64,000 bases of DNA from Minisyncoccota bacterium (lineage in GTDB: Bacteria; Patescibacteriota; Minisyncoccia; UBA6257). A program made the translations under genes and the position numbers. The first letter of the stretch is position 1; each line of letters begins with the position of its first letter. The stretch is taken from assembly GCA_028695015.1 (NCBI GenBank), contig JAQVJR010000001.1, forward strand, positions 255,297 to 319,296, written 5' to 3'. The notes under the pieces were generated by a model, which was not told the origin of the DNA, made no database searches, and worked only from the letters and a program-made list of their open reading frames with translations. Shown here piece by piece: positions 8,163-60,657 of the stretch.

Positions 8163-8888
8163 TTATTTAACAAGAACCATCTTTACAGCAACTCGCTTTG
8201 AGGCTACACCCACAGGCCAGCAACTTTGAAGAACGAGAATTGTTTCCTCATTGCTTGGTGGAAAGATTGTTTCTGTGGTCTCTGAGCCTTTAGGCCAGGG
8301 GATAAAAATTTTCTTATCGACAAATTCAAAAACTAAAGGTTGTTGTTCCCAGAAAATATAGATTTGGTCACCAGTATCTAATTCATTTAATAAAGAAAAA
8401 ACTGATTTATAATTACCTTTTTCCCATGGATACTGGGAGCTATGACCAATAATAATAGAATAGCCTTGGCTAGGATTAGTAGATCCTGGATAAAGCACCA
8501 CTCCTTTTTTAAGTTCTTTGTAAATTAAATCCAAATCAGGAGTTTTTACAGTAATGATTGGGGCTTTAATATTGAATTTTGGTAATTCAATAATATTTAC
8601 TTCATTTGCCTCTTCAGGAATAGAAGGCAAAACAATATTCTCTATTTCAGTTGGAGAAAAAGAAGGAAAAAGAAAATTATCCATAGAAGGAACTAATCTA
8701 TTTTCTTCAACAACAGGGATCTTAGTTAAGAATTTTGGAGTACGAAATAATTCACTTTGGAAAAGATGAGTTGTTTCTTGGAATTTATAATTAAGCCAGG
8801 CAGGAAAAGCACTACCATTAAATACAAAAAAAAGACTAACAAAAAGGAATAAAAAAACCAATAATGAAATTTTTATATCAGTAGTCAT
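8163..8888 (-). CDS. Sortase family transpeptidase
   Basis: N-terminal TM. LPKFNIKAPII, GVVLYPGSTNPSQGYSIIIGHSS (His), VLQSCWP (TLxTC-like Cys) and a downstream Arg. Confidence 0.6.
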   Translation of the reverse strand: MTTDIKISLLVFLFLFVSLFFVFNGSAFPAWLNYKFQETTHLFQSELFRTPKFLTKIPVVEENRLVPSMDNFLFPSFSPTEIENIVLPSIPEEANEVNIIELPKFNIKAPIITVKTPDLDLIYKELKKGVVLYPGSTNPSQGYSIIIGHSSQYPWEKGNYKSVFSLLNELDTGDQIYIFWEQQPLVFEFVDKKIFIPWPKGSETTETIFPPSNEETILVLQSCWPVGVASKRVAVKMVLVK

Positions 8889-8890
8889 TT

Positions 8891-9958
8891 TTAATAAATC
8901 ATTAAGCTCCCAATAATGCTTTCTAATTGAAAAGTGAAAAATGAAATTCCTAAAATAATAACAATTAAGCTTCTAAGAACTAATTCAGAAATACCAATAT
9001 CAATAGATTGTCTTTGCAAGACAATACCAAATAACATTATTAAACCAAAAGAGATTATGAAAACAGCGATAATTCTATTAATAATATCTATTTGGTTTCT
9101 AGTATTGTTGTTTATTTTATTTAAAATATTTTGTTGTTCTAATAATACTGTTGCCACTGGTATTTCTGGCTCAAGTTGAACAGGGCTTTCTTCTTGAGTA
9201 GTTCCTACAGGAATAGTTGGCTTGCTTGATGTAATCTCGGTTATTTCAGGGGCTGGTTGTTCTTGTTCAGCTAAAACTTCACTAGGAGCTTGCTCAGAAG
9301 GTTTTTCTATGTGTTGTTCTGGAGGAATCACAGTTTCTTTTTCTGGGATTGTTTCTGGTTCTTGTGCTAAAGCTATTGGCGTTGAGGGTTGGTGTTTTTT
9401 AGTGCCAAATAATTGAACCACTAAGATTCTATTAATCCCTTCTTTATTAAAATCACCAGAGATAACAGCAATACCCATTTCCTGATAGTTTTTATTTAAA
9501 AGATTATCTCGATGGCTAGGAGAATTAAACCAACCTTTTATAACTTCTTCACTATCTAAGAAATTCATTGCTAAATTCTCTCCTGCATAATAATAATCAT
9601 ATCCAGCTTTGTCTATCCAAAACCAAGGGGAAATTCCTGCAGGACTAAAATGACTAAAATAAGAATGTTGCAACATATCTTCTGCTTTGTATTTCGCAGC
9701 TTGATTTAATAAAGAATTTTCTAAAACTGGCGCTAAACCACTTTGTTTTCTAATGTCATTGGTTAATTGGAAAATTTCCTGAGCGCTTACATCAGCAAAA
9801 AGAGAAGATTGTTTTACTAAAATAAGGTTAAAACTAAAGATAACCTTGACTAATAAAAATAAAAGAATAAATATGGAAATAGCCCGATCACTTAAAATAC
9901 CGGGGTGAAAACCATTTTCTTTTGTAGGCCAAAACCAATTTTTTATTCGTTTAAACAT
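8891..9958 (-). CDS. CAP (SCP/PR1-like) domain protein with N- and C-terminal membrane segments and Pro/Glu-rich linker
   Basis: YFSHFSP...YYYAGENLA...HRDNLL...YQEMGIAV motifs typical of CAP/YkwD domains. Confidence 0.55.
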   Translation of the reverse strand: MFKRIKNWFWPTKENGFHPGILSDRAISIFILLFLLVKVIFSFNLILVKQSSLFADVSAQEIFQLTNDIRKQSGLAPVLENSLLNQAAKYKAEDMLQHSYFSHFSPAGISPWFWIDKAGYDYYYAGENLAMNFLDSEEVIKGWFNSPSHRDNLLNKNYQEMGIAVISGDFNKEGINRILVVQLFGTKKHQPSTPIALAQEPETIPEKETVIPPEQHIEKPSEQAPSEVLAEQEQPAPEITEITSSKPTIPVGTTQEESPVQLEPEIPVATVLLEQQNILNKINNNTRNQIDIINRIIAVFIISFGLIMLFGIVLQRQSIDIGISELVLRSLIVIILGISFFTFQLESIIGSLMIY

Positions 9959-10103
9959 TTTTCTAAAATTGATATTTTACTCTTTTTAATTATATAGAAT
10001 AAATTGATTAATTCAAAGAAAGATTAATCCCTGAACCGATATATTTTAAATTATACCATATTTTACCAAGACTGGCAATAGTAAGTTAATAAGTATTTAA
10101 ATG

Positions 10104-10132
10104 AAAAACCCGTTCATTTATTGAACGGGTTT
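10104..10132 (-). terminator. Intrinsic terminator for the 10139..10483 gene
   Basis: AACCCGTTCA-TTTAT-TGAACGGGTT hairpin. On the minus strand it is followed by a T-run. Confidence 0.6.
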
Positions 10133-10138
10133 AAGTTG

Positions 10139-10483
10139 CTACCAATATGTAAAATACAAAGTATTACCACCAGGATTTAAGTAGATATGCTGCACATGTG
10201 AAAAGCATGGGCCGCTATCTACTACGTATACTTTAACCATCTGGTTGCATGGCAAATTTTCGAATCGAATATTTGGAGAATATTCAAAATCGATGTATTT
10301 GCCAGTGTTTTGATCATTAAGGTATACATATCCGTATACATTGCTGGTATATGTGGCAATAACAGTCAAACTACATTTAGGGGTAGGTGACGGACAGGTA
10401 ATACAGGGACCACAACAGTAGCACCCATTTAAACAAACCAAGCTAATAAAAATAATTATTAACAAGACAGCTTTATTTTTCAT
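10139..10483 (-). CDS. Small secreted Cys-rich (lipo)protein
   Basis: Signal peptide ending LNGC followed by CYCCGPCITCP. 114 aa, no recognisable domain. Confidence 0.35.
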   Translation of the reverse strand: MKNKAVLLIIIFISLVCLNGCYCCGPCITCPSPTPKCSLTVIATYTSNVYGYVYLNDQNTGKYIDFEYSPNIRFENLPCNQMVKVYVVDSGPCFSHVQHIYLNPGGNTLYFTYW

Positions 10484-10551
10484 TTCAGCTCAATTCCTTT
10501 CTTTCTAATTTTTTTTTATTTAATATTTAAAATTGTCAAAATGCTAAACAA

Positions 10552-10580
10552 ATTATAACTATAAAATTATAATTTGTCAA
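10552..10580 (-). promoter_or_regulatory. Sigma-70-type promoter (TTGACA-17-TATAAT) driving the 10139..10483 gene
   Basis: Minus strand reads CTTGACAAATTATAATTTTATAGTTATAAT. A-rich RBS precedes the ATG at 10483. Confidence 0.5.
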
Positions 10581-10613
10581 GTCTACTTAATAATCTTATA
10601 CTAAAAGTTTAAT

Positions 10614-10694
10614 AAAAAAATGCTGCCACCTATTGAAGCAAGCTTCTCTAAGTGACAGCATTCTCAGTATAACAAATGGAAAATATTTGTCAAG
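10614..10694 (-). repeat. Copy A of the promoter-hairpin-U-tract module (also the likely argS terminator)
   Basis: Minus-strand sense: CTTGACAAATATTTTCCATTTGTTATACT-GAG-AATGCTGTCAC[22-nt loop]GTGGCAGCATTTTTTTATTA. About 85% identical to copy B at 56199 in the flanks and stem, with a divergent loop. Confidence 0.55.
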
Positions 10695-10709
10695 TCTTTT
10701 ATTTTAATC

Positions 10710-12446
10710 CTAAATTTCTTTTAAAACTTGAATACCTAATACTTGTAAACCGTTTTTTAAAACCTGGGTAATGATTTGTAAAAGATTTAATTGAGCTTGA
10801 AGGCGATTTTTATTTTCTTCTTTAAGCACCGGGACTGATTCATAGTATTGATTAGATAAATCAGCAAGAGATAATAAATAAGTAGCTAAATAATTTGGTG
10901 CATATTTTTCAGCGCTTAATTCTATTATTTCTGGAAATTCAGATAATTTTTTAATAAGTTGAATTTCCAAAGAACTATTTAATAATAAATAATTTGGTTT
11001 AATGTTTTTAGTTTTTTTAGCTTTAACAAGAATTTTATTTATCCGAGCATAAGTATACTGAAGATAAACACTAGTGTTTCCAGAAAAATCAAGCATTTTA
11101 TCCCAGTCAAAAACAACATCAAGGGCACGAAATGATTTTAAGTCATTAAACTTTAAAGCACCAAGGGCAATAACTTGAGCCAATTCCTCTTGTTTTTTTA
11201 ATGGCCAGTCAGTTTTTTTCTTTTTAACTATATCCAAAGATTTTTCAATTGCTTCATTAATTACTTGATCTAAGGAAATTAACTCACCTTCTCTTGTAGA
11301 AAACTTTTTCTTTTCCGTTGATAAAACTAAGCCAAATTTTACATGAGTTAATTCAGTTTCTTGTTTTGGAAAAAGTATTTTTGCTAAAGTAAAAACTTGT
11401 TTAAAATGCATGTCTTGTTCATTGCCAACAACATAAAGAATTTTTTCTGGTTGGTATTTTTTAAAACGATAAGAAATTAAAGCTAAATCACGAGTAAGAT
11501 ATAAAGAAGCTTCATCTGATTTTTGAATCAGGGCTGGAGGTAGGCCATATTTTTCTAAAGGAATAATTATGGCTCCTTGGCTTTCTTGGGTCAATTCTTT
11601 CTTGTGCAAGGAATCTATTAAAGGAAGGAGATCTTTCTCAAAAAAACTCTCACTAATAAAAAGATCAAATTTAATATTTAAAAGGTTATAGATTTTTTCA
11701 AATTCTTTTAAAGATTCTTTTTTAAACCAAAGCCATATTTTTCTATTTTCTTTATTGCCTTGTTCTAGTTTTTTAAATTCTTGTTGGCCAAATTTTTCTA
11801 ATTCTGGATTCTTTTTTAATTCTTGATGGAATTTTCTGTATAGATGAAGAAGGGTAGTAATAGGCGCTTTTTCGATTTCCTTTTTATTGCCCCAGAGTTT
11901 ATATGCAGCAATTAATTTTCCAAATTGAGTTCCCCAATCACCAAGATAATTCCAGCGAATTACTTGATAACCTAAGCATTCATAAAGATTAGCTAAAGAT
12001 TCACCGATAATCGTTGAACGTAAATGCCCTATATGCATTGGCTTGGCAATATTAGGTGATGAATAATCAATAATAATTTTTTCTTTTTTTCCTTTTTTAG
12101 AAAAACCAAAGGATTCTTTATCTTTAAAAATTTTCTCTAATTGTTTTTGAATAAATATTGGATTAAGGTAAAAATTAATAAAACCATTTCTGGCTATTTC
12201 GATTTTTAATATCTTATTTGGTAATAGTAAATTCATTTCCTTTACTAAAATTTCAGCAATTTCTAAAGGAGATTTTTTAATATCTTTGCTGATTAAAAAA
12301 GCAATGGTAGTACTATAATCTCCAAATTGTTGAATAGTAGGAGTTTCCAAAGGAATGTCATTAATAGATAACAGGGGCCAATTGTTCTTTTTAGCTATTT
12401 TTTTAAAAGATTGATGAATATATTTTTTAATTTCTGATTTGAGCAT
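10710..12446 (-). CDS. argS: Arginine--tRNA ligase
   Basis: SSPNIAKPMHIGHLRST class I HIGH motif and C-terminal DALR-like region. 578 aa. Confidence 0.85.
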   Translation of the reverse strand: MLKSEIKKYIHQSFKKIAKKNNWPLLSINDIPLETPTIQQFGDYSTTIAFLISKDIKKSPLEIAEILVKEMNLLLPNKILKIEIARNGFINFYLNPIFIQKQLEKIFKDKESFGFSKKGKKEKIIIDYSSPNIAKPMHIGHLRSTIIGESLANLYECLGYQVIRWNYLGDWGTQFGKLIAAYKLWGNKKEIEKAPITTLLHLYRKFHQELKKNPELEKFGQQEFKKLEQGNKENRKIWLWFKKESLKEFEKIYNLLNIKFDLFISESFFEKDLLPLIDSLHKKELTQESQGAIIIPLEKYGLPPALIQKSDEASLYLTRDLALISYRFKKYQPEKILYVVGNEQDMHFKQVFTLAKILFPKQETELTHVKFGLVLSTEKKKFSTREGELISLDQVINEAIEKSLDIVKKKKTDWPLKKQEELAQVIALGALKFNDLKSFRALDVVFDWDKMLDFSGNTSVYLQYTYARINKILVKAKKTKNIKPNYLLLNSSLEIQLIKKLSEFPEIIELSAEKYAPNYLATYLLSLADLSNQYYESVPVLKEENKNRLQAQLNLLQIITQVLKNGLQVLGIQVLKEI

Positions 12447-54440: not shown

Positions 54441-56195
54441 ATGGTTCAAGAAGAATTATTTCTTTCAACGCTTATTCAAAGAGGTTTAATAAAACAAAGT
54501 GAAGCTTCAAGTCTTCTTCAAGAGGCACAAGGCTTAGAAAAGAATGTTGAGGAACTTATCAATGAAAGGAAGTTAGTGGATGAAAAGATTCTCGCCCAAC
54601 TTAAAGGCGAGCTTTTTAATTTACCAATTAAGCAATTTACCAAAGATGAAATTATCCCTCAGAGTATTTTGAATTTAATCCCAGAAGACACAGCTCGTTT
54701 CTACAATGTGATTGCTTTTAATAAAGAGAATAATGTTTTGGAGATAGGAATGGTTTATCCAAATAATTTAAAAGCCCAAGAAGCTTTAAAATTTTCAGCC
54801 AGTCGTTTAAATTTAGATCTTAGGGTTTATATCATCACTTTAACTGATTTAAAAAATATCTTAACCCAGTACCAAACCTTTACTAAAGAATTTAAAGCAT
54901 TAGTAGAGGATTTTCAAAGAAGATTTGCCGGAGTACCTAAAAAAACAGCTACTTTTAAATTAATAGACTTAGAATCTACTGCTGGTGCTGTAGCTGAAGA
55001 AGCACCTATTATTAGGCTTTTTGCTTCAATTTTAAAATTTGCTGTGCGCTCTAGAGCTTCTGATATTCATATTGAGCCAGAAAGAAATAAATTAAGAGTT
55101 AGGTTACGTGTTGATGGTAATTTAACTACAACCTTAACATTGCCTTTTGCTGTTCATTCGGCAATTGTTAGTCGGGTAAAGATAATGGCTAACTTAAAGA
55201 TTGATGAAACAAGAATACCTCAAGATGGGCGTTTTTTCTCAATGATAGATGAAAAAGAAATTGATTTTAGGATTTCAACATTTCCTACAGCCCTAGGGGA
55301 GAAGATAGCTATTAGAATTTTAGACCCCACAGTGGGTTTAAAAAGCATTCATGAATTAGGTCTTGAGGGAAGAAATTTGGAAATTTTACAATCAGAAATT
55401 TTAAAACCTTATGGGATGATTTTAATTACTGGACCTACAGGCTCTGGTAAAACAACGACTCTTTATGCATTAATGCAGATTTTAAATCAAGATAAAGTTA
55501 ATGTTATGAGTTTAGAAGATCCAGTAGAATACACTATGGAAGGAATTAATCAATCTCAGGTTTTGCCAGAAATTGGCTATACTTTTGCCAGGGGATTGCG
55601 TCATATGGTGCGTCAAGACCCAGATATTATAATGGTTGGGGAAATTCGAGACACAGAAACAGCAGAATTAGCAGTTCATTCTGCTTTAACTGGACATCTG
55701 GTTCTTTCAACCTTGCATACTAATAATGCTATTGGGGTTATCCCTCGTTTATTAGATTTAGATGTTGATTCTTATTTATTACCTTCTTCTTTAAATTTAA
55801 TGGTTGCTCAGCGTTTGGCTAGAAGATTATGTCCTGAATGCAAGAAAAAGGTCTTGGCTACAGAAAAAGAACAACAAATTATTGAAGAATCTCTATCTGC
55901 TTTATCAAAAGAAGCCAAGGAAAAATTATCTTTTCAAAAACCTTATCATGTATATAAAACCAAAGGCTGTCCAACTTGCAACAATAAAGGGTATATGGGT
56001 AGGGTAGCTATTTTTGAGGTAATGAGAATGACTCCTGAATTAGAGCAAATAATTTTATCTCAACCTTCACAAGAAAGGCTTTTTGCCGAGGCTAAGAGAC
56101 AAGGAATGATTACCTTACAACAAGATGGAGTATTAAAAGCATTAGCAGGATTAGTAAGCTTAGAAGAAATTCTTTCTATAACTTCAAGGTATTAA
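54441..56195 (+). CDS. pilB: Type IV pilus assembly ATPase PilB (GspE family)
   Basis: N-terminal GspE_N domains, Walker A GPTGSGKTTT, tetracysteine CPEC...CPTC zinc motif. 584 aa. Confidence 0.85.
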   Translation: MVQEELFLSTLIQRGLIKQSEASSLLQEAQGLEKNVEELINERKLVDEKILAQLKGELFNLPIKQFTKDEIIPQSILNLIPEDTARFYNVIAFNKENNVLEIGMVYPNNLKAQEALKFSASRLNLDLRVYIITLTDLKNILTQYQTFTKEFKALVEDFQRRFAGVPKKTATFKLIDLESTAGAVAEEAPIIRLFASILKFAVRSRASDIHIEPERNKLRVRLRVDGNLTTTLTLPFAVHSAIVSRVKIMANLKIDETRIPQDGRFFSMIDEKEIDFRISTFPTALGEKIAIRILDPTVGLKSIHELGLEGRNLEILQSEILKPYGMILITGPTGSGKTTTLYALMQILNQDKVNVMSLEDPVEYTMEGINQSQVLPEIGYTFARGLRHMVRQDPDIIMVGEIRDTETAELAVHSALTGHLVLSTLHTNNAIGVIPRLLDLDVDSYLLPSSLNLMVAQRLARRLCPECKKKVLATEKEQQIIEESLSALSKEAKEKLSFQKPYHVYKTKGCPTCNNKGYMGRVAIFEVMRMTPELEQIILSQPSQERLFAEAKRQGMITLQQDGVLKALAGLVSLEEILSITSRY

Positions 56196-56371: not shown

Positions 56372-56818
56372 ATGAAAATGAATAGAATGTTTCTTGTTTT
56401 AATGTTAGTAATTTTTTTACTAACAGGATGTAGTGGTAATGGAGTAATTCCTCCTCCAGTAGAAGAGCCACCAGTAGAGATAATAGAAGAAATAGTTGAG
56501 AGGTTTGTTGGTACATGGCTAAATGTGGATAAAAATACAGACAATGTAACCAAGATTGTTATAGCGGAAATTGATAATTATTTATCTATAAGAGTATGGG
56601 GGAAGTGTCATCCTGATGACTGTGATTGGGGGAAAAAATTTATAAAGAAAAACGAAGTAATGGATGGAGTAATAAAGTTAACTTGGCTGTTTTCAGGAAC
56701 AGAAGTTGTGCAAGAAATTATTTTACTAAATGATCCCAATGGCAGGATTAATGTAAAATACGATTATAATTATTTAGGAATAGAGTCTAATGTAACAGAA
56801 GCAATGTACAAGTCATAA
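56372..56818 (+). CDS. Secreted lipoprotein of unknown function
   Basis: Signal peptide with LLTGC lipobox. Pro/Glu-rich linker. CHPDDCDWG Cys pair. Confidence 0.4.
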   Translation: MKMNRMFLVLMLVIFLLTGCSGNGVIPPPVEEPPVEIIEEIVERFVGTWLNVDKNTDNVTKIVIAEIDNYLSIRVWGKCHPDDCDWGKKFIKKNEVMDGVIKLTWLFSGTEVVQEIILLNDPNGRINVKYDYNYLGIESNVTEAMYKS

Positions 56819-56826
56819 ATAAATGA

Positions 56827-56862
56827 AAAAAAGGGCAAATTAATTAATTTGCCCTTTTAAAA
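56827..56862 (+). terminator. Intrinsic terminator
   Basis: AAAAGGGCAAATTAATTAATTTGCCCTTTTAAAA. Confidence 0.65.
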
Positions 56863-56957
56863 TTCCTTACTCAAGACTTGACCCAATATCTTATAAAGGT
56901 ATAATAAATAGAGGCTCTAAAAGAGAGGTTTTTATAAAATTTATAATAAATAAATAC

Positions 56958-57557
56958 ATGAATAAAAAATACATTATTATATTAGGTTCAATTTTTATAG
57001 TTTTAATAATAGCTTTTGGTTTAATTATATATTTTCAGAAAAAACCACTTGATTTAAGTTTTTATGATAATTTACCCTCGGCAGATAGGTGTGAGAATTT
57101 AATGGAAGATAATGCATTTGCAGTGTGTTGCATGAAAGATGAAAAGTTTTATTCTTGTGCTGAGCGCGAAGAATTTAAGCCTGGGGAAGAAATAAAAATT
57201 TTGATAGATCTTCCTAAATTCCCTGAGGTTGAAATATTTTCTGATTATAATTATGTATGCTTAAGCACAGATATTAATCGTAAAAATACAGAAGGAGAAA
57301 TTATTTTCTTTCCAGAGGAATGCTTTGTTTTCTCTAGAGAATCTTTAGCAGAAATATCAGGGGTTATTCCTTCTGCTGATGAGTGTATGTCATGTAGGCG
57401 CGCACCAAATGATCCTTATGGTATTTTTACTCTATTAAAGATTAATCTATATCCAGATTTTTATAAACAAGTATTAGTAGAAAAAGAAACAGAAGAAGGA
57501 ATAGTTGAAAGTGATGAACTTACGATTTTAAATTTAAAGGCCAAAGTGTCTAATTAA
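56958..57557 (+). CDS. Hypothetical membrane-anchored Cys-containing extracellular protein
   Basis: N-terminal TM. 10 Cys in CxxxxxxxCC / CxxC arrangements. No known domain. Confidence 0.3.
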   Translation: MNKKYIIILGSIFIVLIIAFGLIIYFQKKPLDLSFYDNLPSADRCENLMEDNAFAVCCMKDEKFYSCAEREEFKPGEEIKILIDLPKFPEVEIFSDYNYVCLSTDINRKNTEGEIIFFPEECFVFSRESLAEISGVIPSADECMSCRRAPNDPYGIFTLLKINLYPDFYKQVLVEKETEEGIVESDELTILNLKAKVSN

Positions 57558-57579
57558 TCTAAATTATAAATTCAATATC

Positions 57580-58938
57580 ATGAATAATTTAATAGGATAT
57601 AAAAAGATGCGAGTGATTACTTATTTTTTACTTATATTTTTAATATCATTTTCTGTATTTTTTTATATTAACAATTTTACACAGAATTTATTTGCTGCTT
57701 GTCAAGACGACGGAGCTACTACAACTACTACTACTAAAGCTACTACTACCACAACAAAGAGACAGACAACAACAACGACAAAAAGTGGAGGATGTGGCAG
57801 TGGTGGAGATGATGGAGGAGGTAGTAATGGAGGGGGTTATATTCCTGGCCCTGGTGAAACAGGGAGTTCGCCTAATGGAGGAAATGGGGGTCCGTGCGCA
57901 CCACCTGTTGAGTGTTCAAAGTGGGTGATGTGTAAATACTGTGACGAGCAAGGCAAATGTACATCAGTGAGGGAGTGCGAGAGATGTGATCGAACAACAT
58001 GCATTAATGACTCAACTTGTAAATCAGTTATGAAACAACAAACATATAATCTTTGCTTAAATGGTATTTGCACTCAGGTGTCAACAAATTATGCTGATCC
58101 TTCTGGTTTTTTTCTTACTGATGAATGTTCTAATGTAGGAGGTAAGTGTGATATAGGATGTCCTCGTTATTTAGCTTGTTCATCAACATACAGAACATTT
58201 GTTGATAATCAAGGACAAACTCAAATACTAACAGTATATACATGCGCTAGAAGTGATTTCGCTACGCATAATGAATGCGCCAAACCTTCAGATTGTGGTC
58301 CACAAAGCAGCAGTACAGAGCAAAGCAGTACAATATCATGTCAAGTCTGTAATAATAAACAACAATGCGTAAGGCAGTCTTTTAAAGCTTCTTCATGCAC
58401 AAAAGTAAAATCCCAAGGATATACATTGTGCACTAATAATCAAGATTGCAGAGATGCTTCTCTGCCACCAACTGAAAATGGAGATTCAGAGAATGGAACA
58501 AATGGTAATGGAGGTTATTATATCCCCACATGCTCCATTAACAAATTTGAATTACCCAATCATGTCTGGACAGGAGTTAATTATGAAGCAAAATGGTCTA
58601 CCAATAGTGATTGTAAATGGGGTGAAATCACTTGTAAATTAGGAGATGAAGATTGTGGAGATAATGAAACTCTTAGTGGTGAGGTAACAGTTGGCTCTAT
58701 TGATCATGAAAAGTCTTTCCATATCACAACACCAGGTGTCTATACATATCAATTAAAAGCCTGTTATGACAAAAACAATGAAAATACTTGTGTTACTTGG
58801 GAAGATACTCTTGGTACTGAATTAGACTACATAGAAGTCCAAGCAGTTAACCTTCCTTGGTGGCAAGAAATCATTCCTGTTCTACCTGATAAACTCCAAG
58901 GATTCTTAAGGGGATTGTTTTTAAGTTTTAATAAATAA
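57580..58938 (+). CDS. Secreted Thr-rich, extremely Cys-rich protein (adhesin/toxin-like, unknown function)
   Basis: Signal/TM, TTTTTTKATTTTTKRQTTTTTK mucin-like linker, Gly-rich stretch, then ~45 Cys in repeated CxxxC/CxC knots. Locally elevated GC. Confidence 0.35.
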   Translation: MNNLIGYKKMRVITYFLLIFLISFSVFFYINNFTQNLFAACQDDGATTTTTTKATTTTTKRQTTTTTKSGGCGSGGDDGGGSNGGGYIPGPGETGSSPNGGNGGPCAPPVECSKWVMCKYCDEQGKCTSVRECERCDRTTCINDSTCKSVMKQQTYNLCLNGICTQVSTNYADPSGFFLTDECSNVGGKCDIGCPRYLACSSTYRTFVDNQGQTQILTVYTCARSDFATHNECAKPSDCGPQSSSTEQSSTISCQVCNNKQQCVRQSFKASSCTKVKSQGYTLCTNNQDCRDASLPPTENGDSENGTNGNGGYYIPTCSINKFELPNHVWTGVNYEAKWSTNSDCKWGEITCKLGDEDCGDNETLSGEVTVGSIDHEKSFHITTPGVYTYQLKACYDKNNENTCVTWEDTLGTELDYIEVQAVNLPWWQEIIPVLPDKLQGFLRGLFLSFNK

Positions 58939-58966
58939 ATTTTAAGTTAAATACAAGCTAAAGTTA

Positions 58967-58998
58967 AAATGCATGGGAATTAGTTTCCATGCATTTTG
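58967..58998 (+). terminator. Intrinsic terminator
   Basis: AAAATGCATGGGAA-TTAG-TTTCCATGCATTTTGG. Confidence 0.6.
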
Positions 58999-59018
58999 GT
59001 TTATGCTATAATTTTTTT

Positions 59019-59624
59019 ATGAAAAAAATAGATATAATATTTTTTATTTCAATTTTTATTGTTTCTTGGCTTGTTTTTGGCAAAATGGCTCAATTTTCAA
59101 ATGTTTTTATTCGTTGGGGTTTTGGGACAATACCTTTATTGCTTTTCATTCTTTATCCAATTTTTATAACTTTTAAAAAAAGGGAAAAATTTTCAAAAAT
59201 AGGGCTTACTTTTAAAAATTGGTTAATGGCGATTATTTGGGGAGGAGGGGTAAGCTTGTTTATTATTATTTTAAATAAATATTTTGTGTTTAATGAACCG
59301 TTGGCTTATTTTGATAATTTAGGCATGGGAATTGTTTATTGGGGATTCTTGTCATTTTCCCAAGAAATTTTTTTTAGAGGACATTTACAAACTAATCTAG
59401 AAAAGCAATATGGTAATTATTTGGGAGTAATTTTAGCTGCTTTAATTTTTGCTTTTTGGCACATTACAATTCGTTTCTATCCAGGATGGATGTCATTTCC
59501 TCCATTATTAAAAGTTTTTTCCGTAGGGTTATTATGGGGACTATCTTTTCAAAAAACAAAAAACCTAATTGCTCCTTGTTTGTCTCATTTTTTAGTTGGG
59601 GTTTTTTTAAGTAATTATTTTTGA
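59019..59624 (+). CDS. CPBP-family (CAAX/Abi-like) intramembrane metalloprotease
   Basis: EEIFFRGHLQ (EExxxR) and FAFWH motifs. Start at ATG 59019 preceded by a TATAAT box. Confidence 0.6.
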   Translation: MKKIDIIFFISIFIVSWLVFGKMAQFSNVFIRWGFGTIPLLLFILYPIFITFKKREKFSKIGLTFKNWLMAIIWGGGVSLFIIILNKYFVFNEPLAYFDNLGMGIVYWGFLSFSQEIFFRGHLQTNLEKQYGNYLGVILAALIFAFWHITIRFYPGWMSFPPLLKVFSVGLLWGLSFQKTKNLIAPCLSHFLVGVFLSNYF

Positions 59625-59892
59625 TTTTAAATCTTGCGCATGCTAATGGTGAATACTAATGGTGAGTTAAATAATATAAGAAAACGATTAAATAAATGCT
59701 TTCAAGTAAATAGTCAGGGATTATTTTAATTAGAAAATACAGTAGTTAAAATTTATAATAAACTAAAGGGAGTCATTGTTAAAGAAATAAGAAAAGAGCA
59801 CAAAAAATTAAACAATTGCTTCACAAGGATAGTTTTAAAAAATAATTTTAATTGATTAGGCTCTTATTTGATCAAACCTATCATATTAATTT

Positions 59893-60657
59893 TTAGGTTG
59901 TTCTTTTATTTATTTTTATTAAGATTAAACTACCAATGATTATAATAATCAATGAGGCAAATTGAGCATAGCTTAAAGTGTTATACCATGCGTTACCTTG
60001 AAAAATGAATCCTGTATTATAACGAAAATATTCTATAAAAAACCTAGCAAATGATTGAATGATGCTACCTATCAAAAACAAAGAACCATCTCGTAGTTTG
60101 GTTTTATTGGAATAAAAATAAAGGCACAGAAGAATTATAAAATAACTAAAGGCTTCATATAGTTGTGTAGGATGTCTAAAAAGATTATCTCCCAAAGATG
60201 GAAAATTTATAGCCCAAGGTACGTTAGTAATTATTCCATAACAACATCCATGTAAAAAACAACCAATTCTTCCAATTGCATGACCTGATAATATTCCAAA
60301 GATAAGCGCATCCAGCCATTTTTTTATGTTTTCTTTGTTTTTTCTTAAAAATATAATAAAGGCCAAAGTGCCTATAATAAATGCTCCTTGCCAGCTAAAT
60401 CCTCCTTTCCAAAAATAAAACATTCTTAAAGGGTCTTTGAGATAAAAATTAAGATTTAATAAAACATAGCAAATACGAGCTCCTATAAAGCCACTAATAA
60501 TTGTAACAATTGTTGTATATTTAGCTTTATGGCTATTAAGGTTTTTCCTTTTTGCTTGTTTTAAAAAAACTATTCCTCCGATAGCAATACCCAAAATCAT
60601 AAAAAGCCAATAGAACTCTATAGCAAAATTATTAAATTGAAATAAAATAGGATACAT
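59893..60657 (-). CDS. lgt: Prolipoprotein diacylglyceryl transferase
   Basis: MYPILFQFNNFAIEFYWLFMILGIAIG N-terminus and conserved Lgt H/Y/G motifs. Start set at ATG 60657 to avoid tRNA overlap. Confidence 0.8.
   Translation of the reverse strand: MYPILFQFNNFAIEFYWLFMILGIAIGGIVFLKQAKRKNLNSHKAKYTTIVTIISGFIGARICYVLLNLNFYLKDPLRMFYFWKGGFSWQGAFIIGTLAFIIFLRKNKENIKKWLDALIFGILSGHAIGRIGCFLHGCCYGIITNVPWAINFPSLGDNLFRHPTQLYEAFSYFIILLCLYFYSNKTKLRDGSLFLIGSIIQSFARFFIEYFRYNTGFIFQGNAWYNTLSYAQFASLIIIIIGSLILIKINKRTT

Follow-up and report, generated by a model that had tools for sequence, protein, structure and literature searches.

A native, conserved envelope gene block of Paceibacteria-type bacteria encodes variable exported proteins with a common C-terminal tail and an atypical CPBP beside lgt

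Introduction

Bacteria of the CPR (candidate phyla radiation), also called Patescibacteria, are thought to live attached to host cells, and apart from type IV pili little is known of how their surfaces are built. The stretch of DNA analysed here, 64,000 nt from contig JAQVJR010000001.1 of a Minisyncoccota bacterium (the whole of which we call the window), contains four consecutive plus-strand genes between a type IV pilus ATPase gene and lgt. What are these four genes, which we call A to D, for? The original prediction, made from the sequence alone, described them as an accessory islet of probable foreign origin, in which a secreted Cys-rich protein (gene C) and a CPBP (Abi) intramembrane protease (gene D) might be a toxin or adhesin with its immunity protein. 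Host attachment by an episymbiont was offered as an alternative.

We find that the genes are part of a native, conserved envelope gene block, which also includes lgt. Gene C belongs to a multi-copy, recombining family of variable exported proteins with a conserved C-terminal module, and D is an atypical CPBP whose gene is linked to lgt and, in most loci, to a C gene. The function is less certain. We tentatively prefer the reading in which Paceibacteria-type CPR bacteria inherit the locus vertically, across the clade, as an envelope locus that makes and handles variable surface proteins, and in which the invariant tail of these proteins is read by D.

The gene block is native and conserved

Related loci were chosen in three ways: through the C-terminal tail of the gene C protein (among GTDB species representatives), through P0016, and through D only (in metagenomes). 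The same gene order recurs in all three sets, with a gene for an A-like lipoprotein or secreted protein followed by B, C and D, and then by lgt in the reverse orientation. Among the non-redundant loci chosen through D, a C-type gene ends 7–126 nt 5′ of D in 15 of the 18 that could be assessed. The exceptions are L041, which is rearranged, L032, in which A and B are inverted and C lies past the end of the contig, and L057. In 19/20 of the non-redundant D-chosen loci lgt converges on D, often with overlapping 3′ ends. Identity to the window is highest for the tail (71–88%), D (61–73%) and Lgt (58–67%); it is 24–52% for the Ig-like domain of C and about 30–50%, in partial alignments, for B, A and the modules of C.

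The genes that flank the block are of two unrelated kinds. The first context runs from pilM-N-O-pilB to parA-parB, and holds the block in the window and in L013, L014, L017 and L022; the pilB side of the window's context is also seen in L003, L013, L014, L043, L056 and L059. The second runs from genes for a sortase, a CAP-domain protein and a small lipoprotein to those for arginyl-tRNA synthetase (ArgRS), BacA and CCA, and in L004 and L016 it contains the whole A-B-C-D-lgt block. The corresponding slot in the window (8163–12446, minus strand) has genes for the sortase (8163–8888), the CAP-domain protein (8891–9958), a 114-aa Cys-rich lipoprotein (10139–10483) and ArgRS (10710–12446) and is empty of the block. 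As this slot is filled in L004 and L016, the block sits at different places in related genomes.

The two contexts also separate C from its neighbours. In genome CAZEMH01 the copy of C in the pilus context is accompanied by D and lgt (L017), and the copy in the sortase context is followed directly by ArgRS (L024). In the close relatives L003 and L018 the pilus context holds C and no D-lgt. Thus D and lgt go together as a unit, and the C paralogue that they follow is not always the same one.

The DNA of C had been described as visibly more GC-rich than its surroundings, and this had been taken as a sign of foreign origin. Gene C does have the highest GC content of the 50 open reading frames (ORFs) in the window (0.367; mean 0.312, SD 0.022), but the excess is found only at codon position 2 (GC2, 0.480 versus 0.319, SD 0.041). 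Both GC3 (0.212 versus 0.194, SD 0.029) and GC1 (0.409 versus 0.424) are ordinary, and the GC3 and GC1 values of all four genes lie inside the distribution for the window. The restriction to GC2 is an effect of amino acid composition, through the codons for Thr, Gly, Cys, Ser and Pro, and its source is the poly-Thr and Gly-rich linker of C (residues 42–105; 57703–57894). Normal GC3 means that there is no compositional sign of foreign origin. Native GC3 and GC1 in genes A to D, together with synteny in more than 20 non-redundant loci, lead us to reject a foreign islet.

With this, the proposal that C (or B) of a horizontally acquired islet is a secreted toxin or bacteriocin, and D its Abi/CPBP self-immunity protein, becomes very improbable. 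CPBP/Abi proteins have a role in bacteriocin immunity in Firmicutes (cited in PMC9298176), where, as here, a PF02517 gene adjoins a gene for a secreted protein. The high GC content of C and the variability and copy number of its family would also fit a toxin, but the native GC3 of all four genes and the synteny of the block across many genomes do not. In a toxin and an immunity protein that co-evolve, one would not expect the first to diverge and be shuffled, as C is, and the second to stay 61–73% identical, as D does. C has several paralogues to a single D, and there are B–C pairs with no D. In contrast with the Firmicutes systems, no small leader-bearing bacteriocin, C39 peptidase, ABC exporter or regulator is found nearby, conservation and synteny are housekeeping-like, and the motifs of D are non-canonical. 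A, B and C gave no defence or toxin match against PADLOC, Pfam and NCBIfam (A has weak LPAM and lipoprotein-signal matches only). No PADLOC defence model matches the block. A conserved terminator also separates C from D, which has a promoter-like site of its own. The idea of a toxin or adhesin with an Abi immunity protein is not supported. The original prediction had named, as evidence that would speak against it, uniform composition and a CPBP gene conserved next to lgt in relatives without the Cys-rich genes. Such evidence now largely exists: GC3 is uniform and the CPBP gene is kept by lgt, but a C-type gene is mostly present as well (15/18).

A family of variable proteins with a conserved C-terminal module

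Gene C (57580–58938, plus strand) encodes an exported modular protein of 452 aa. The protein is identical to PHG13_01740 (contig JBEFFD010022295.1), from a Candidatus Pacebacteria (CPR) metagenome-assembled genome (MAG). The poly-Thr runs (three of them) and the Gly-rich stretch that had been noticed in it are present, but it has 32 Cys residues and not the 45 or so first counted. Residues 1–41 (57580–57702) are a signal sequence, with hydrophobic residues at 12–30 and an alternative start at M10 (57607). The signal ends in LFAAC (Cys41, or Cys32 from M10), a lipobox-like sequence that agrees with no more than a permissive lipobox pattern. Most members of the C family have type I signal peptides, and a lipobox-like end is confined to a minority that includes the window protein. 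After the linker come variable Cys-rich modules (residues 106–314; 57895–58521), which are shuffled among paralogues and orthologues. These are followed by a conserved domain that is predicted to be an Ig-like β-sandwich (residues 315–423; 58522–58848; alignments A1 and A3) and by a terminal ‘LPWW tail’ (residues 424–452; 58849–58935), NLPWWQEIIPVLPDKLQGFLRGLFLSFNK.

Homology outside the C-terminal domain is partial only. The region common to the homologues of C is the last ~130 residues (29% of the query), and the N-terminal parts of the family are made up of shuffled small Cys-rich modules and Thr/Pro linkers, with 4 to 110 Cys per member. The tail is the most conserved element. It has the pattern a-[LIV]-N-LP[WF]WxEIIPxL-(0-4 residues)-GFLRG[LI]-x2-8 and a length of 20–29 residues, and in the alignments its P, W, E, I and I are invariant. 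In 75/75 proteins that carry the pattern the tail is at the extreme C-terminus, and the protein ends 2–8 residues past GFLRG[LI].

The tail matches no Pfam or NCBIfam model. It has no Cys in any position, the nearest being 18–37 residues upstream at a position that is not fixed, and no transmembrane (TM) segment, as the best 19-aa hydropathy is 0.62 against about 1.6 required. E, D, K and R are present, with one Arg or Lys close to the end and no Arg cluster. In a 150-residue AlphaFold2 (AF2) model the predicted local distance difference test score (pLDDT) of the C-terminal domain is above 90 over residues 18–121, which cover the sandwich, and the tail is of low confidence; the model predicts it to be flexible and unstructured. 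Foldseek returned only generic Ig-like, CARDB and PKD matches for the domain, with TM-scores of 0.4–0.5, and sequence searches of the PDB with A, C and the D profile found no match. The family profile remotely matches PKD/Ig repeats at its GxYxYxL region, and gene C itself has no Pfam PKD match. Of the 252 matches in a whole-library profile search, roughly 75–90 are true members and the rest are PKD-repeat proteins drawn in through the GxYxYxL strand.

A conserved β-sandwich of ~110 aa at the end of otherwise variable modular secreted proteins, as is predicted for C, is a feature of C-terminal Ig-like sorting or anchoring domains, such as the C-terminal domain (CTD) of the type IX secretion system (T9SS) and the PKD/CARDB sandwiches. 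C differs from these in that it has no Pfam PKD or T9SS-CTD match and has an extra invariant linear tail after the domain. In addition, CPR bacteria have neither an outer membrane nor a T9SS. A weak Por_Secre_tail match belongs to P0085, an unrelated remote protein, and not to C. We found nothing in the literature on the C family, or on any CPBP in CPR bacteria; the C family and its tail are previously undescribed.

The window genome has at least three tail genes (window C, P0006/PHG13_00500 and a fragment at a contig start), and there are two copies in L025 and two in L047. A 3′ segment of 393 nt is 98.0% identical in nucleotide sequence between window C (58524–58916) and P0006 (L002:2613–3005), and the 5′ parts of the two genes are unrelated. 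The homology stops just before the unusual last residues of window C (FLSFNK in place of IS). The same segment is only 83.4% identical to that of the orthologue in the related genome L003. As the paralogue is closer than the orthologue, the 3′ module has been homogenised within the genome, and the sequences suggest gene conversion or cassette-like recombination as the cause. Near-identical 3′ ends on unrelated 5′ modules also suggest that recombination drives surface variation in this reduced genome. Many C-family genes lie at the ends of MAG contigs (e.g. L015–L019 and L022–L024). Since assemblies can be expected to break at a 3′ module that is repeated almost identically, each genome probably has more copies than were counted.

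One member of the family, P0017 (L063:973–2505), has an N-terminal Hint/intein-like domain (PF07591 and PF14890; TIGR intein N- and C-terminal splicing regions) before its Cys modules and LPWW-type tail.

D is an atypical CPBP linked to lgt

Gene D (59019–59624, plus strand) encodes a 201-aa polytopic CPBP (Rce1-like) membrane protein, recognised by its hydrophobic segments and by a PF02517 match of 56.8 bits against a gathering cut-off of 22.4 (E=2.8e-15). Close orthologues form only 26 clusters, all of them 61–75% identical to window D, and D is a narrow, highly conserved CPBP subfamily. Its best NCBIfam matches are Mrt models, all far under the cut-off (score/cut-off: MrtS, 39.1/130; Mrt_core, 32.9/100; MrtP, 32.2/250; MrtX, 21.3/180; MrtC, 21/195; and MrtJ, 19.5/75).

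Active CPBPs have the motifs EExxxR, FxxxH and HxxxD/N (PMC12260438). Of the residues concerned, MrtX uses the first Glu together with the motif-2 His to position the catalytic water, while its oxyanion hole is made up of the motif-3 His and Asn (PMC11980579). Motif 1 of D is Q115-E116-I-F-F-R120 and not EExxxR; the first position is Gln, or Arg in one sequence, across the 25 orthologues of alignment A2 and 21 locus-derived sequences. Motif 2 is a canonical and invariant FxxxH (F144-A-F-W-H148). Motif 3 is H190-F-L-V-G194, with an invariant Gly, and not HxxxN/D. A canonical CPBP was sought in the loci as a check on the motif alignment and none was found, so the motif assignment draws on the literature and on a constant distance to the R-G of motif 1. 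Judged by these motifs, D is without two canonical catalytic residues and may be an atypical enzyme or a binding-only protein.

The convergent neighbour of D, lgt (59893–60657, minus strand), encodes a 254-aa prolipoprotein diacylglyceryl transferase (PF01790, E=1.6e-54). The link between the two genes could mean that D is an accessory or regulatory partner of Lgt, that is, a degenerate, non-proteolytic CPBP in lipoprotein maturation. Its position after C would then be inherited synteny, and B and C would be an independent surface or adhesin pair. We consider this unlikely, though several observations favour it. In 19/20 loci D and lgt converge, and in many of these their 3′ ends overlap; the two genes are also present or absent together by position (L003 and L018 versus the window; L017 versus L024). 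D is conserved at the level of a housekeeping gene such as lgt, its catalytic motifs are degenerate, and it is predicted to be transcribed separately from C. A second CPBP, D2, is translationally coupled to lgt in some genomes. However, genes that converge are not co-transcribed, and frozen synteny alone does not predict that D-lgt should lie right after a C-type gene in two chromosomal contexts. The signal peptides of most C copies next to D are of the ordinary kind, and the adjacency cannot be put down to other known Lgt substrates.

Non-catalytic CPBP partners are documented elsewhere: LnsB, which acts with LnsA in lipoprotein N-acylation in S. aureus (PMC7387801), and SpbR, which acts with the signal peptidase SpsB, and SpdC (PMC12260438). 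D has in common with these the CPBP fold, incomplete motifs and an implied part in the maturation of envelope proteins or lipoproteins, and it is tied to the gene for the first lipoprotein-maturation enzyme. It differs in being less degenerate, for it keeps E116, R120, FxxxH and the motif-3 His, and in that there is no LnsA-like NlpC/P60 gene in the block. Its partner is indicated by adjacency only. There is no LnsB similarity among the NCBIfam matches of D, in a library that may or may not include an LnsB model. A motif search for lspA in the window and the related loci gave no match, with only 64 kb of the source genome covered.

We also considered whether C could account for the adjacency of lgt by being a lipoprotein itself. 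We rejected this, since most D-adjacent C copies have type I signal peptides.

The second CPBP gene, D2, lies between D and lgt. In L038 (872–1522, minus strand) it encodes 216 aa, is on the lgt strand and has a start that overlaps the lgt stop. The protein matches PF02517 (E=1e-10), its best NCBIfam match is the archaeomyxosortase MrtA (2.8e-20, below the cut-off), and its motifs are WEYLLRG, FVLLH and HVFIN. D2 is also present in L037 and L051–L053, and it is split across frames in L004–L009, L028–L029 and L041. Some genomes thus seem to have an intact D2 and others a frameshifted one, and from the window, where the non-coding spacer between D and lgt (59625–59892) is empty, it seems to have been lost by deletion.

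A possible display system for variable surface proteins

In the reading that we prefer, C would be exported by Sec, and its C-terminal module would then serve as the handle by which the protein is kept at, or sorted to, the cell surface. This would leave the variable Cys-rich modules exposed, in the manner of an episymbiont's adhesin or antigenically variable protein. An invariant linear tail calls for an equally invariant reader in the membrane; B is too variable and D fits, which makes D the best candidate. With Gln for the catalytic first Glu and Gly for the oxyanion Asn, D may have the task of binding or presenting the tail and not of cutting it, and it could do so in a complex with Lgt or alongside the type IV pilus machinery. 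A host-attachment or surface protein of an episymbiont, which the original prediction had given as its alternative, is compatible with the data and is our best functional guess for C.

Several observations are consistent with D as the reader. There is one D per locus and there are several tail genes per genome, the block recurs in two unrelated contexts, and the conservation of the tail is matched by that of D. The homogenised 3′ module, a tail predicted to be flexible beside a confidently modelled domain, and best NCBIfam matches of D that are to Mrt-type sorting CPBPs point the same way. CPBP sorting enzymes adjoin their substrates (doi 10.1101/2023.06.07.544157), and D may be likened to the myxosortase-type CPBPs that are found beside substrates with C-terminal sorting signals (MrtX, MrtC, MrtP, MrtJ, MrtS and MrtA; MYXO-, JDVT-, Synerg- and CGP-CTERM; 10.1101/2023.06.07.544157, PMC11980579). 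In both cases a narrow CPBP subfamily is encoded beside a protein with a motif at its extreme C-terminus, a genome has several motif proteins and one CPBP, and the substrates are Sec-exported surface proteins. The MrtX model includes an Lgt-like lipidation step and T2SS (type II secretion system) transport, with Lgt proposed as the lipidating partner of the CPBP sorting protease (PMC11980579). A similar tie to lipidation and to T2SS or type IV pilus-type machinery may be proposed here, where lgt and pil genes are close by.

There are also differences. The LPWW tail is without the invariant Cys, the TM helix and the Arg cluster that define the Mrt substrates, and the block is for this reason not a member of the Mrt systems. 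D is below all Mrt cut-offs and has QExxxR and HxxxG versus EExxxR and HxxxN, a terminator lies between the substrate gene C and the CPBP gene D, and the host is a monoderm-like CPR bacterium. The locus is instead an undescribed variant of a known theme, in which C-terminally marked surface proteins are encoded next to a CPBP.

Some of these differences also weigh against the tail being read by D. The tail is not a classical tripartite sorting signal, and D is without two canonical catalytic residues. In nearly all loci the spacer between C and D has a strong terminator and a promoter of its own, which means that the two genes are no operon. The linkage of D to lgt (19/20) is tighter than that of C to D (15/18). 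There are B–C pairs without D (L002, L021 and L025), and L003 and L018 have C at the same position with no D-lgt. The sub-cut-off Mrt scores may reflect the shared CPBP core only, and the functional links, and with them the proposed mechanism, all come from gene neighbourhood and conservation. A fuller version of the proposal is that CPR bacteria have in the tail a new C-terminal signal for sorting or anchoring, one that is not tripartite, and that an atypical CPBP, with Lgt and perhaps the type IV pilus machine, reads it in order to display recombining, hypervariable Cys-rich adhesins on the surface of the episymbiont. We put this forward as possible, but on the doubtful side.

The pilus genes admit another reading, in which the C-terminal module (the Ig-like domain and LPWW tail) docks onto, or is routed through, the type IV pilus or a T2SS-like machinery. 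The C proteins would then be pilus-associated adhesins, and D would be peripheral. Three independent arrangements place tail genes next to those of the type IV pilus. In the window and its relatives they come directly after pilM-N-O-pilB, in L025 directly before pilT/B, pilC, pilin and prepilin peptidase genes, and in L027 they have pilC and pilins on one side and further pilin-like genes on the other. MYXO-CTERM and GlyGly-CTERM proteins need the T2SS for surface display (PMC11980579). We nevertheless regard docking to the pilus as improbable. There are no pilus genes within 6–10 kb in the sortase/ArgRS and TP_methylase contexts or in L036, L042, L045 and L047, and pilus genes are so numerous in small CPR genomes that chance adjacency is expected. 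In addition, C has no pilin-like N-terminal methylation motif.

Through this locus a clade-wide family of variable, presumed surface proteins is defined that had not been described, with a fixed putative C-terminal handle and fixed membrane-protein neighbours, namely B, an atypical CPBP and Lgt. If the tail and the CPBP are indeed linked, the C-terminal sorting signals of prokaryotes extend to one with no TM segment or Cys, and D gives a tangible example of a CPBP that has a defined client although it is partly degenerate. The pairing of CPBP and lgt genes would also be the first, independent genomic support for cooperation between a CPBP and Lgt, which is an open point of the myxosortase model (PMC11980579). 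If they are not linked, what had been supposed to be a foreign toxin–immunity islet is still a set of native, conserved envelope genes.

Organization of the locus

As originally described, four consecutive plus-strand ORFs lie between pilB and lgt, and their identities stand, with a predicted lipoprotein for A, exported proteins that contain Cys for B and C, and a CPBP for D. The pilB-type ATPase gene of the type IV pilus or T2SS is at 54441–56195 on the plus strand (PF00437 T2SSE, E=4e-126) and ends the pilM-N-O-pilB run of the pilus context. Gene A (56372–56818, plus strand) is an ORF for a predicted 148-aa lipoprotein with the clear lipobox LLTGC (Cys20). Orthologues of A are found in L003, L010, L011, L043 and others, always 5′ of B.

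Gene B (56958–57557, plus strand) encodes a 199-aa single-pass membrane protein with 8 Cys, a TM segment at residues 6–24 and a mostly β ectodomain. In each of the three paralogue contexts, also where D is missing (L002, L021 and L047), a B-family gene is found directly 5′ of the C-type gene. In the distant loci L062, L063 and L025 the gene 5′ of C is only B-like in architecture (an N-terminal TM segment and an ectodomain) and is below profile detection. B is fast-evolving, at 24–56% identity; its AF2 model is poor (pLDDT 61), and a fold search, for which it was not good enough to be meaningful, gave no match. B was also considered as a conserved CxxC redox partner and rejected, because the CMSC motif of window B is missing from distant B homologues.

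Each of the four genes had been thought to be followed by its own terminator. In a scan of structure and energy this holds for A and C but not for B and D. A palindromic intrinsic terminator lies 3′ of A (56829–56858; dG -15.9 kcal/mol, z -4.35), and an intrinsic terminator 3′ of C (about 58964–59002, plus strand; dG -22.6, z -4.39) consists of a hairpin followed by UUUUGGUUU. The 22-nt spacer between B and C has no structure and no terminator, and nothing terminator-like is found on the 3′ side of D. There are promoter-like sites, recognised from sequence matches, before B (TTGACC-16-TATAAT, 56878–56905, plus strand; a consensus match only) and before D (58984–59012, plus strand), the latter with the extended -10 box TGCTATAAT. 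The start of D is most likely the ATG at 59019, which gives the 201-aa protein, as an in-frame ATG upstream (58989) falls within the hairpin of the C terminator.

In almost every related locus the C–D spacer has a strong hairpin and U run, followed by a TGnTATAAT or TATACT box (examples are L047:5917–6001, L013:10339–10435 and 58964–59012 in the window). The hairpin and the TATGCTATAAT or TATGTTATACT box keep their position before the start of D across divergent genomes, and the hairpin sequences differ. This conserved arrangement of hairpin and promoter-like box suggests that B and C are one transcription unit and that D is separate.

Two loci from more distant CPR bacteria, L025:4423–13896 and L027:79–15393, have the same tail (e.g. 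PLPWWREIIPKLSGFLRG) within type IV pilus clusters, which include genes for a pilT/B-like ATPase, PilC, pilins and the prepilin peptidase. Some of the sequences were deposited under unexpected names. L012 (CAYWLA010000091.1), which has a full B-C-D-lgt block, is labelled ‘uncultured Methanosarcinales archaeon’, the B homologue P0187 is labelled ‘Bacteroidales bacterium’, and several loci are given as Saccharibacteria. These labels are probably binning or labelling errors for Paceibacteria-type contigs.

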